DNA of 41,023 bases. Origin: a virus. Lineage: Duplodnaviria > Heunggongvirae > Uroviricota > Caudoviricetes. Location: positions 1 to 41,023 of the IMG/VR virus record IMGVR_UViG_2541047694_000003; one strand, 5' to 3'. Made by a program: the position numbers and the translations under genes. Below are positions 36,262-38,703 of the stretch, one piece after another (position 1 is the first letter of the stretch; every line of letters begins with the position of its first letter). The notes under the pieces are model-generated. The model saw only the letters and a list, made by a program, of their open reading frames with translations, was not told the origin of the DNA and did not search any database.

Positions 36262-38703
36262 ATGAGCACTGATAAAGAAGAATTTGCACTATATTGCGAA
36301 GCAAAAAATGACAAAGTAAGAAAACGCCTGGGAATTAAAGGTGGTTTTTACTGGACTACAGCAAAAAAATTATCTGTTGCAATCTCCCGCTGCATTACCG
36401 CAATGGATGACAACGATTATGATGAAGACGACTTTAAAAAACCCGTCCGCGTCAATTTGCCCGTTGTTGACGACCTTCCGCCAGAAGGCGTGTTTGATAC
36501 TGAATTCTGCAACCGCTATGAAAAAGGCGGGAAAGATGGCATCACAATGACATTTATCGGCCCTTCCCCCTCTGTTCAGGACAAACCAGCCAGCACTGAC
36601 AATACCAACATCAACGGCGAAGACATGACTGAGATTGAGGAGAGCATGCTTCTGCCTGTCTCCGGTCAGGAACTGCCCATTCGTTGGCTTGCTCAACACG
36701 GCAGCGAAAAACCAGTAACGCACGTTTCACGCGACGAACTCCAGGCATTACACATTGCACGGGCTGAAGAACTACCGGCTGTTACTGCCCTGGCTATTTC
36801 GCATAAAACCAGTCTGCTCGACTCGCTGGAGATTCGCGACCTCCACAAACTGGTTCGTGACACTGACAAAGTTTTCCCTAATCCTGGTAATTCAGACCTG
36901 GGACTAATAACTGCTTTTTTCGAAGCATACCTGGACGCTGACTACACTGATCGGGGTCTGCTGACAAAAGAGTGGATGAAAGGAAATCGTGTTTCACGCA
37001 TCACCCGCACGGCTTCCGGTGCTAATGCTGGCGGTGGGAACAAAACCGATCGCAATCCGAATTTAGTACACACCCTCGACACACTGGATGTGGAGATTGC
37101 AGCAGCCACACTTCCGATGGATTTTAATATTTATGAAATTCCGGGCAGCGTTTATCGTCGCGCAAAAGAAGTAGTCCTGAACAAAGAAAGTCCGTTCAAA
37201 GAATGGTCCGCAGCACTTCGTGCAACCCCGGGTATTCTGGACTATTCCCGCGCCGCTATTTTTGCACTTATCCGAAGCGCACACCCTGAATTTTATCACT
37301 ACCCGGGACGCCTTCAGGGGTATATCAACGCCTATTTGACGGAAACTGATCACGAGAACCCCAGCAAGGAAACTCTCACAGCTGCCCGGCATACGCCGGA
37401 AAAAGATATCCTGGAAGAAATTAACCGCGAGGTGGTTACTGAGCGTGAAACAGAAGAAGAAAAACCACAACCATCTGACGCAATGGCAGGTGAACAGGCA
37501 ACAACTGAAACAATGGAACCGGATACAACTGAACATGGCCAGAACGCGCAGTCGCTGGATGCTCAGTCGCAGGTGAGTTCCGCTAACCAAGTAAAAGTCA
37601 CCGCTGACGAAGCAAACAAAATTATGCAGGCAGCCAATATCAGCCAGCCTGACGCCGATAAGTTACTTGCTGTATCGCGTGGTGAATTTGTTGAGGGGAT
37701 TAGCGACCCTAATGATCCGAAATGGGTCAAGGGGATCCAGACTCGCGATTCTGTGAACCAGAACCAGCATGAATCGGAACGGAACGACCAAAAAGCGGAA
37801 CAAAACAGCCCAAATGCGTTACAAAACGAGCCAGAAACGAAACAATCCGAACCAGTAGCGCAACAGGAACCGGAAAAAGTCTGCACCGCCTGCGGTCAGA
37901 GCGGTGGCGGCAACTGCCCTGATTGTGGCGCGGTGATGGGCGACGCAACATACCAGGAAACATTCGATGAAGAGAATCAGGTTGAAGTTCAGGAAAATGA
38001 TCCGGAGGAAATGGAAGGCGCTGAACATCCACACAAGGAGAACCCTGGCGGCAATCAGCATCACGCCAGCGATAATAAAACTGGCGAGACGGCAGATCAC
38101 TCAATTAAGGTGAACGGTCATCACGAAATCACATCCACCAGCAGGACGTGTGACCATCTAATGATCGACCTTGAAACCATGGGAAAAAATCCTGATGCCC
38201 CGATCATCTCAATAGGTGCAATATTTTTCGATCCGCAAACCGGAGATATGGGACCGGAATTTAGTAAGACTATCGATCTGGAAACTGCTGGCGGAGTCAT
38301 TGATCGGGACACCATTAAATGGTGGCTTAAGCAATCACGCGAAGCGCAATCTGCCATTATGACCGATGAAATCCCGTTAGATGATGCACTGTTACAATTG
38401 CGGGAATTTATCGACGAAAACTCCGGTGAATTTTTTGTTCAGGTCTGGGGAAATGGAGCCAACTTCGACAACACGATTTTGCGCCGTTCATACGAACGGC
38501 AGGGGATCCCCTGCCCGTGGCGTTACTACAACGATCGCGATGTACGCACAATCGTTGAGCTGGGGAAAGCCATAGACTTCGATGCCAGAACGGCTATTCC
38601 ATTCGAAGGTGAGCGACATAATGCACTTGATGACGCTCGTTACCAGGCAAAATACGTTTCAGCTATCTGGCAAAAACTGATCCCGAGTCAGGCTGATTTT
38701 TAA
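36262..38703 (+). CDS. RecE N-terminal-like protein with C-terminal DEDD-type 3'-5' exonuclease-like domain
   Basis: 813 aa; residues ~110-260 closely match the RecE N-terminal region as recalled ([40 protein letters not shown]...); central zinc-ribbon-like [17 protein letters not shown]-terminal ...[28 protein letters not shown]... exonuclease-like. Confidence 0.6.

Follow-up and report, generated by a model that had tools for sequence, protein, structure and literature searches.

The DNA analysed here, the 41,023 nucleotides (nt) of the IMG/VR virus record IMGVR_UViG_2541047694_000003 (hereafter the window), represents an Escherichia coli prophage that is located at a tRNA-Ser gene adjoining mtfA and that combines an early region of lambdoid type with late genes for a contractile tail. 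Our analysis concerns the last gene of its early-left, dicB-type operon. This gene encodes a protein of 813 amino acids (aa) with a RecE-type N-terminal module (RecE-N) and a C-terminal domain that is predicted to be a DEDDh exonuclease. The gene order in this region is cI-type repressor, ydfA, ydfB, ydfC, the small RNA (sRNA) DicF, dicB, ydfD, the RecE-N/DEDD gene, xis and int, and the two genes that follow were identified as a DUF4224 excisionase and a tyrosine integrase, as a preliminary description made from the DNA letters had stated. A RefSeq protein, WP_001566784.1, labelled "3'-5' exonuclease", is 100% identical to the window protein. Coordinates of the gene, its parts and its neighbours are given in Table 1.

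Table 1. The RecE-N/DEDD gene, its predicted parts and the neighbouring features (positions are those of the window).
Feature	Position	Strand	Basis
RecE-N + DEDDh exonuclease gene	36262..38703	+	one complete 813-aa open reading frame (ORF), ORF listing
N-terminal alpha/beta domain, aa 1-100	36262..36561	+	AlphaFold2 (AF2), predicted local distance difference test (pLDDT) 70-94 over aa 4-100
PF06630 Exonuc_VIII region (RecE N-terminal signature), aa 57-189	36430..36828	+	Pfam, 1.7e-35
Helical domain, aa 270-380, Gifsy-2-like sequence	37069..37401	+	AF2 pLDDT 80-92, alignment
Acidic Q/E/N/T-rich linker, aa 392-630, predicted disordered	37435..38151	+	pLDDT <50
Zinc-ribbon-like motif CxxC-x7-CxxC, C541-C544 and C552-C555	37882..37926	+	motif also in K-12 RecE
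Module junction, end of nucleotide homology to RecE-type genes at 38098 (aa 613)	38096..38101	+	DNA comparison
Predicted DnaQ-fold DEDDh 3'-5' exonuclease domain, aa 632-803	38155..38670	+	PF16473, 7e-68
Upstream block of ydfA-like (DUF1391), ydfB-like, ydfC-like, DicF, dicB and ydfD	34610..36168	+	
DicF sRNA	35566-35617	+	Rfam, 76.7 bits
dicB	35792-35980	+	
ydfD	35977-36168	+	
DUF4224 excisionase (xis)	38762-38965	+	
Tyrosine integrase (int)	38965-39990	+	
tRNA-Ser on the attachment-site (att) side	40043-40132	-	

Architecture of the protein

The N-terminal half of the protein is RecE-like. In addition to the Pfam signature, K-12 RecE (from NC_000913) aligned to it in BLASTP with 59% identity over aa 58-615, corresponding to RecE residues 50-591, and the NCBIfam RecE equivalog NF007259 was matched over model positions 1-602 of 877 (aa 1-615), with 944 bits against a cut-off of 1269 bits. 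Past RecE residue 591 BLASTP found no further similarity between the two proteins. PF12684, the PD-(D/E)XK nuclease family that is present in the RecE proteins of K-12, Gifsy-2 and HK225, did not match the window protein, whose C-terminus was instead covered by PF16473 (Rv2179c-like 3'-5' exonuclease) over model positions 2-177 of 177, with 228 bits against a cut-off of 27 bits. Residues D636, E638, D736, H786 and D791 align with the catalytic residues D7, E9, D119, H186 and D191 of T4 DexA; in an alignment of 51 sequences E638 is conserved in at least 90% and the other four are invariant. Among PDB sequences phmmer matched only the T4 DexA entries 8KEL and 8KEN (1.9e-6). An AF2 model of the domain, built with a 51-sequence alignment (pLDDT 86.2, predicted template modelling score 0.83), had DexA 8KEL as its best Foldseek match (E 6.8e-12, template modelling score 0.72), followed by RNase T and REXO2/Orn, with ERI3 also among the strong matches. 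A RecE nuclease chain was returned neither by the PDB sequence search nor among the best 50 Foldseek matches to the PDB. The C-terminal domain thus appears to be a DnaQ-fold DEDDh exonuclease in which none of the five catalytic residues is lost and whose 3'-to-5' polarity and DNA substrate we infer from its relatives. The preliminary description had proposed a RecE-like N-terminal half and, at the C-terminus, a DEDD-type 3'-5' exonuclease in place of the RecE nuclease. Both proposals held, the latter in domain annotation and structure prediction alike.

In comparison with RecE of the Rac prophage, which has RecT as its partner, the window protein shares the PF06630 region, the acidic linker, the CxxC...CxxC motif and the early-left position upstream of xis-int, whereas the PF12684 5'-3' nuclease (RecE ~592-866) is replaced by the DEDDh domain and the overlapping recT that belongs to RecE loci is missing. 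With T4 DexA (8KEL/8KEN) it shares the DnaQ fold and the five catalytic residues, at an identity of only ~21-28%. The DexA-specific insertions are absent, W152 of DexA corresponds to a Tyr, and an N-terminal extension of 615 aa is found in the window protein only.

The boundary between the two modules is sharp at the DNA level. From its start to nt 38098 the gene is 95% identical to RecE-type IMG/VR loci, after which the identity collapses abruptly. Past this junction RecE reads VEDIEPGIYYG, the start of its nuclease domain, and the swap point is the exact boundary at which the PD-(D/E)XK nuclease of RecE begins. Other segments have other closest relatives. Homology to phage Tritos is confined to aa 444-813 (97% identical in nucleotides), aa 1-100 are similar to a protein of a Shiga toxin (Stx) phage, with aa 1-57 aligning more closely to the "RecE-N-only" protein of that phage than to K-12 RecE, aa 117-260 are nearly identical to K-12 RecE, and aa 261-380 are Gifsy-2-like. 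The identities of separate segments are discordant from homologue to homologue, and the gene is a mosaic built from exchangeable segments.

Some further observations concern the modules and their junction. A Chi site (5'-GCTGGTGG-3') is located inside the gene at 38135-38142 on the minus strand, 37 nt downstream of the junction, and the 13-mer around it is kept in 44 of the 64 DEDD-type loci of the survey described below. In the representative proteins P0127 and P0213 the RecE-N module is fused straight to a RecT domain, possibly as the result of a nuclease deletion, and truncated ORFs of 414 aa without any nuclease were found in loci L054-L056 and L059 (~7001-8245). An internal start at M634, which would yield a standalone nuclease, was considered and rejected, the sole AGGA being placed ~14 nt upstream of the ATG, a poor spacing.

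An AF2 model of aa 1-630 was confident for aa 4-100 and aa 270-380 only, and a fold search with the N-terminal module gave no informative structural match. The linker has a length of ~230 aa, and the net charge across aa 371-630 is -33. The CxxC...CxxC motif within the linker had a weak match to Pfam DZR (E 0.096). The preliminary description had pointed out this motif in its acidic surroundings. It is indeed present, but it is not special to this protein, since K-12 RecE carries the same motif (CNACGQTGGDNCPDC). Among representatives at 50% identity the motif was found in 3 of 18 DEDD-type, 1 of 16 PD-(D/E)XK-type and 2 of 14 N-only clusters. Because it occurs in K-12 RecE and sporadically in every cluster type, the zinc ribbon is an optional sub-module of the RecE-type linker, inherited from RecE and separate from the swap.

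Recombination partners and Chi sites

The absence of a recT partner, as noted in the preliminary description, was found to extend over the whole window. Searches by tblastn for RecT (with six RecT sequences as queries), Bet, P22 Erf, Gam, Abc2, lambda Exo and the RecE nuclease gave no match in the window (best E 0.06), and Pfam and PHROGs scans of the early-region ORFs revealed neither an annealase nor an anti-RecBCD protein. The left end of the prophage is located outside the window; in a genome with a 100% identical gene and a matching prophage annotation, only tail genes are found there.

The partner rule was assessed on the 80 IMG/VR loci with the closest N-terminal modules, which are mostly E. 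coli prophages and related to one another. A RecT-like gene was present in none of the 64 loci with a DEDD-type nuclease, directly downstream in all 8 loci with a PD-(D/E)XK-type nuclease, and in none of the 8 loci that are truncated or cut by a contig end. Annotated phages follow the same pattern: Gifsy-2, HK225, pAEv1818 and a Klebsiella phage carry RecE together with RecT, and phage Tritos carries the DEDD form directly before xis-int and without RecT. Proteins termed "RecE-2", which have no nuclease domain, have also been reported (PMC12315714). The RecE-N module is shared by these relatives, some of which have a zinc-ribbon linker and none of which has a recognisable nuclease. One example, a 682-aa protein of the Shigella Stx phage 75/02 (L005, 4001-7810; 933W-like), is 47% identical to the window protein over aa 1-570 and is encoded immediately ahead of a complete gam-bet-exo set. 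The RecE-N module is therefore also associated with lambda Red-type systems, as a separate polypeptide.

The same division is seen in the Chi sites. The window contains 13 Chi sites (GCTGGTGG) at 10090-38831, compared to an expectation of 1.38 +/- 1.10, and none of 100 shuffles reached this number. Ten of them are on the minus strand, the coding strand for the late as well as the early-right genes, and three are on the plus strand. The 64 DEDD-type loci (682 kb) encode 186 Chi sites on the minus and 7 on the plus strand, or 2.73 per 10 kb on the minus strand, whereas the 8 RecE+RecT loci (96 kb) have a single site on the minus strand and none on the plus strand, or 0.10 per 10 kb on the minus strand. 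Chi was found in 37 of 37 de-replicated DEDD clusters and was absent from 7 of 8 RecET loci. Since DEDD-type loci are Chi-rich and without RecT and RecET loci are nearly Chi-free, the type of nuclease on the RecE-N module tracks two recombination lifestyles.

According to Zheng et al. (2025, PMC12315714), a Rec module is missing from about one in five lambdoid phages, which are instead rich in active-orientation Chi sites, the class being delimited by at least 8 active-orientation and at most 6 inactive sites. Its prototype, phage LLS, is described there as growing better with RecBCD, and early-left operons of lambdoid phages are described as able to carry DnaQ-like 3'-5' nucleases, often near int (PMC12315714). 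With 10 active and 3 inactive Chi sites, and with neither an annealase nor an anti-RecBCD protein in the window, the prophage fits this "no Rec module, high Chi" lambdoid class as defined there, and the missing recT is better explained by its membership in the class. LLS and the window prophage are alike in having many Chi sites and no Rec module. LLS gp34, a standalone nuclease of 190 aa with Ala at residue 78, is 56% identical in the catalytic domain (tblastn) and is likewise the last gene before xis-int, whereas a RecE-type N-terminal module is fused in front only in the window protein.

Operon setting and possible functions

No sigma-70-like promoter was found on the plus strand between ydfD and the RecE-N/DEDD gene. 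The homologous dicBF operon of Qin has a promoter under repressor control (PMC10448788). Because the gene has no promoter-like site of its own and belongs to a repressor-controlled dicBF-type operon, it is expected to be expressed early in the lytic phase. The Qin-like dicBF operon of the window is still joined to functional-looking xis/int and structural genes. Qin ydfE and DLP12 exoD were considered as K-12 remnants of the gene, and neither is homologous to it. The exonuclease stop and the xis start are 58 nt apart, and this spacer contains a perfect 14-bp hairpin at 38714-38749 on the plus strand that lacks a U-run. The best fold of 38700-38765 had -21 kcal/mol (z -3.7 against shuffles), and the hairpin may be an RNA-processing or attenuation signal for xis/int expression.

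Taken together, we consider it probable that the gene encodes a modular early-left protein of an E. coli lambdoid prophage, consisting of a RecE-type N-terminal module and a DEDDh 3'-5' exonuclease, that is expressed upon induction and is not one half of a RecET- or Red-type pair. The protein would be made when the prophage is induced, from the repressor-controlled dicB-type operon, and would digest DNA from its 3' ends, as a 3'-to-5' exonuclease that depends on Mg2+. Its N-terminal module might be a nuclease-agnostic targeting or scaffolding part that is used with a 5'-3' nuclease, with a 3'-5' nuclease or with none. The setting would most likely be the processing of DNA ends by a phage for which the RecBCD-Chi-RecA pathway of the host is essential to recombination. 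RecBCD requires nearly blunt ends to load, and the trimming of 3' tails to near-blunt ends would be one example of such processing. We propose this specific role in end processing for a phage reliant on RecBCD-Chi-RecA only tentatively, because of the genomic association and the known end requirements of RecBCD. It is similarly speculative that the RecE-N module is an adaptor that serves a PD-(D/E)XK nuclease and RecT in Chi-free, self-sufficient phages and a DnaQ-type nuclease in Chi-rich users of RecBCD. If so, the DEDD variant would be devoted to assisting phage growth that depends on Chi, and it might blunt 3' tails for RecBCD or bind a host recombination factor via the shared N-terminal domains.

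Several points weigh against a modular 3'-5' exonuclease with a part in DNA-end processing. The polarity and the substrate, whether DNA or RNA, are assigned by homology only, and the Pfam family takes its name from an exoribonuclease. 3'-5' exonucleases acting on single-stranded DNA generally inhibit recombination, as cited in PMC12315714. The same paper indicates that DnaQ-type genes are neither universal in nor limited to phages without a Rec module, and that those near int are often found in genomes with a Rec module (PMC12315714). Since DnaQ-type genes, according to this source, do occur together with Rec modules, the association with Chi may reflect just the loss of recET, without any link to RecBCD. 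In addition, the 80 surveyed loci are phylogenetically non-independent, and Chi enrichment in a resident prophage can also be obtained by amelioration to the host chromosome. The adaptor role of the N-terminal module is conjectural, because no fold was recognised in it.

Of the other functions that might be assigned to the protein, a prophage defence nuclease of the HREX type, which would spare unmodified host DNA and degrade the 5-hydroxymethylcytosine-containing DNA of T-even phages, has the best standing, although we consider it unlikely. The precedent is the E. coli DexA homologue EcD (HAK9828821.1, "HREX"), which digests T4 DNA, spares unmodified DNA and protects against T4 (PMC12153337). 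The C-terminal domain of the window protein is a DexA homologue by sequence and predicted fold, D169 of DexA aligns to D772, albeit in a poorly aligned loop, W152 aligns to the aromatic Y756, and the prophage has other defence genes, including a Rosmer-like pair. However, the residue at the position of W152 is Tyr and not Trp, and DexA D90, the tetramer-forming Asp that is reportedly lost in the dimer-only defence form, which spares host DNA, is retained as D708, with S87 aligning to P705. The gene is located at the end of a repressor-controlled operon together with the toxic DicB and YdfD (PMC10448788), and it has no promoter-like site of its own, which makes expression in a healthy lysogen unlikely. 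Unlike DexA and EcD, it is part of the early operon of a temperate phage and belongs neither to a virulent phage nor to the standalone bacterial genes. No PADLOC defence-system model matched the protein, EcD is apparently a short standalone protein, which may correspond to the 190-aa form of the LLS type, and the conserved RecE-type extension of 615 aa would be left unexplained.

The defence-type genes of the prophage are located elsewhere in the window. At 24788-26544 on the minus strand, a 381-aa protein with a helix-turn-helix and an M78 peptidase matches PADLOC RmrA (5.5e-102) and an upstream 204-aa protein matches RmrT (7.5e-10); by these matches the pair looks like a Rosmer-type defence system. 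At 27144-31195 on the same strand, an IS3-family element (transposase ORFs 28862-30045), which is ISEc52 in the genome with the matching prophage annotation, stands between a Cap4-nuclease/AAA protein (405 aa, with a weak LmuA-like match) and a 560-aa protein that ends in SEC-C. This looks like a single defence-type locus that was disrupted by an insertion sequence (IS). Three phage tRNA genes were found at 21834-22083 on the minus strand, between the Q antiterminator and the lysis genes: Arg-TCT, Arg-TCG and one with a CAT anticodon, which is Met according to ARAGORN and Ile according to RefSeq.

A second function, which appears improbable to us, is that of a working substitute for RecE, in which the protein resects ends for an annealase supplied in trans by another prophage or for RecA of the host. 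The gene occupies the position of the recombination module beside xis-int and has kept ~600 aa of RecE, the N-terminal DNA of RecE-type and DEDD-type genes is 95% identical, which implies that modules exchange freely, and many E. coli genomes have both types of gene. Moreover, the nearest relative of known structure, T4 DexA, participates in the repair of double-strand breaks when introns home (PMC12153337). A 3'-5' exonuclease would nevertheless destroy the very 3' tails that annealases and RecA use, and an adjacent annealase is found in 0 of 64 DEDD-type but in 8 of 8 PD-(D/E)XK-type loci. The combination of many Chi sites with no RecBCD inhibitor is the signature of reliance on host RecBCD (PMC12315714). 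The suggestion of the preliminary description that the protein might be a recombination nuclease is thus unlikely in the RecET sense, given the presumably wrong polarity and the lack of an annealase in the related loci.

No better placed is an activity on RNA, as a 3' exoribonuclease similar to Rv2179c, RNase T or Orn, acting for instance on the dicBF-type mRNA or on host RNAs during induction. The best Pfam model bears the name of the exoribonuclease Rv2179c, the strong structural matches include RNase T, REXO2/Orn and ERI3, and the name given by NCBI is often "3'-5' exoribonuclease domain-containing protein". However, RNase T also acts on DNA, and T4 DexA, to which the domain is closest among solved proteins in sequence as well as in structure, is a DNA exonuclease. 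Rv2179c of Mycobacterium tuberculosis, the founder of PF16473, is a standalone exoribonuclease with no shared genomic context, and it gave no phmmer match in the PDB search at E<0.01. In the window protein the domain stands where the DNA-recombination scaffold otherwise bears a DNA nuclease, and its presence tracks Chi and RecT status.

Least likely is an anti-defence nuclease, the other function suggested in the preliminary description, that would act early after induction on the single-stranded DNA of reverse transcriptase (RT) systems, on guide DNAs or on linear oligonucleotide signals: the early-operon position, the mosaic and rapidly shuffled architecture typical of accessory or counter-defence genes and the degradation of short oligonucleotides by Orn and REXO2, both structural matches of the DEDDh domain, would suit it, but literature searches on the family found no anti-defence role (those on the PF accessions, on Rv2179c in a phage context and on DEDD together with anti-defence returned no relevant paper) and the strong tie to the Rec-module dichotomy favours recombination or replication biology.

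Distribution and implications

A DEDDh exonuclease on a RecE-type module is common in E. coli. Of 5426 complete E. coli genomes, 4069 contain the 605-bp DEDD segment, with 8111 occurrences in total and as many as 7 in one genome, compared to 1736 that contain the nuclease segment of K-12 RecE, and the whole gene was present at a coverage of at least 80% in 1245 genomes. In a search of 1.84 billion representatives at 50% identity, the best 150 matches included 19 clusters of RecE-N with DEDD, 16 of RecE-N with PD-(D/E)XK and 40 of RecE-N only, as well as 70 standalone DEDD proteins (~180-250 aa). A search with the full protein returned at least 120 near-identical E. coli sequences and was uninformative on diversity; further diversity came from searches seeded with a homologue from a Vibrio phage and with RecE of the Aeromonas phage pAEv1818, whose matches were mostly from Serratia. 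The domain swap recognised in the preliminary description is therefore real, but it is no isolated case, with 19 clusters at 50% identity and a frequency in E. coli above that of canonical RecE. The gene was also present in the induced phages vB_EcoS-640R1, -813R8 and -689R5.

The homologous ORF is intact in ~52 of the 64 DEDD-type loci, and the ratio of nonsynonymous to synonymous substitution rates (dN/dS) is ~0.2 for the whole gene. In nine of ten pairwise comparisons dN/dS was 0.07-0.15 for aa 1-390, 0.23-0.39 for the linker and 0.12-0.34 for the DEDD domain. The tenth homologue (L021), with values of 0.30 for the N-terminal module (99.8% identity) and 1.79 for the linker (98.8%), has near-zero substitutions and is uninformative. 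By these ratios the N-terminal module is the most constrained part of the protein and the whole ORF is under purifying selection, in an old and diverse architecture that is very common.

The gene family is already catalogued, and its component parts were noted in the literature of 2025. We did not find a discussion of the fusion of RecE-N to DEDD in the main text of PMC12315714, and we could not find an earlier description of the fusion and of its clean link to RecT absence and Chi enrichment. By itself, this is an ordinary prophage gene, which automatic pipelines have already annotated: RefSeq labels it "exonuclease" or "3'-5' exonuclease". In many deposited phage genomes (ON470612, ON470619, ON470583, OV696610 and others), however, the DEDD-type gene is labelled "exodeoxyribonuclease VIII" or "exonuclease VIII, ds DNA exonuclease". 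The label "exodeoxyribonuclease VIII" is a misannotation in this case and would inflate counts of RecET systems. The present analysis corrects the annotation, in that the gene is not RecE and has no place in a count of recombineering-type exonucleases. Across 72 loci the type of nuclease sorts perfectly with the presence of RecT and with the depletion or enrichment of Chi, which links a feature of a single gene to the two recombination lifestyles of lambdoid phages described in 2025 (PMC12315714). For the long-standing question of what the N-terminus of RecE does, this amounts to a natural experiment, in which the same module is found with nucleases of (predicted) opposite polarity or with none.

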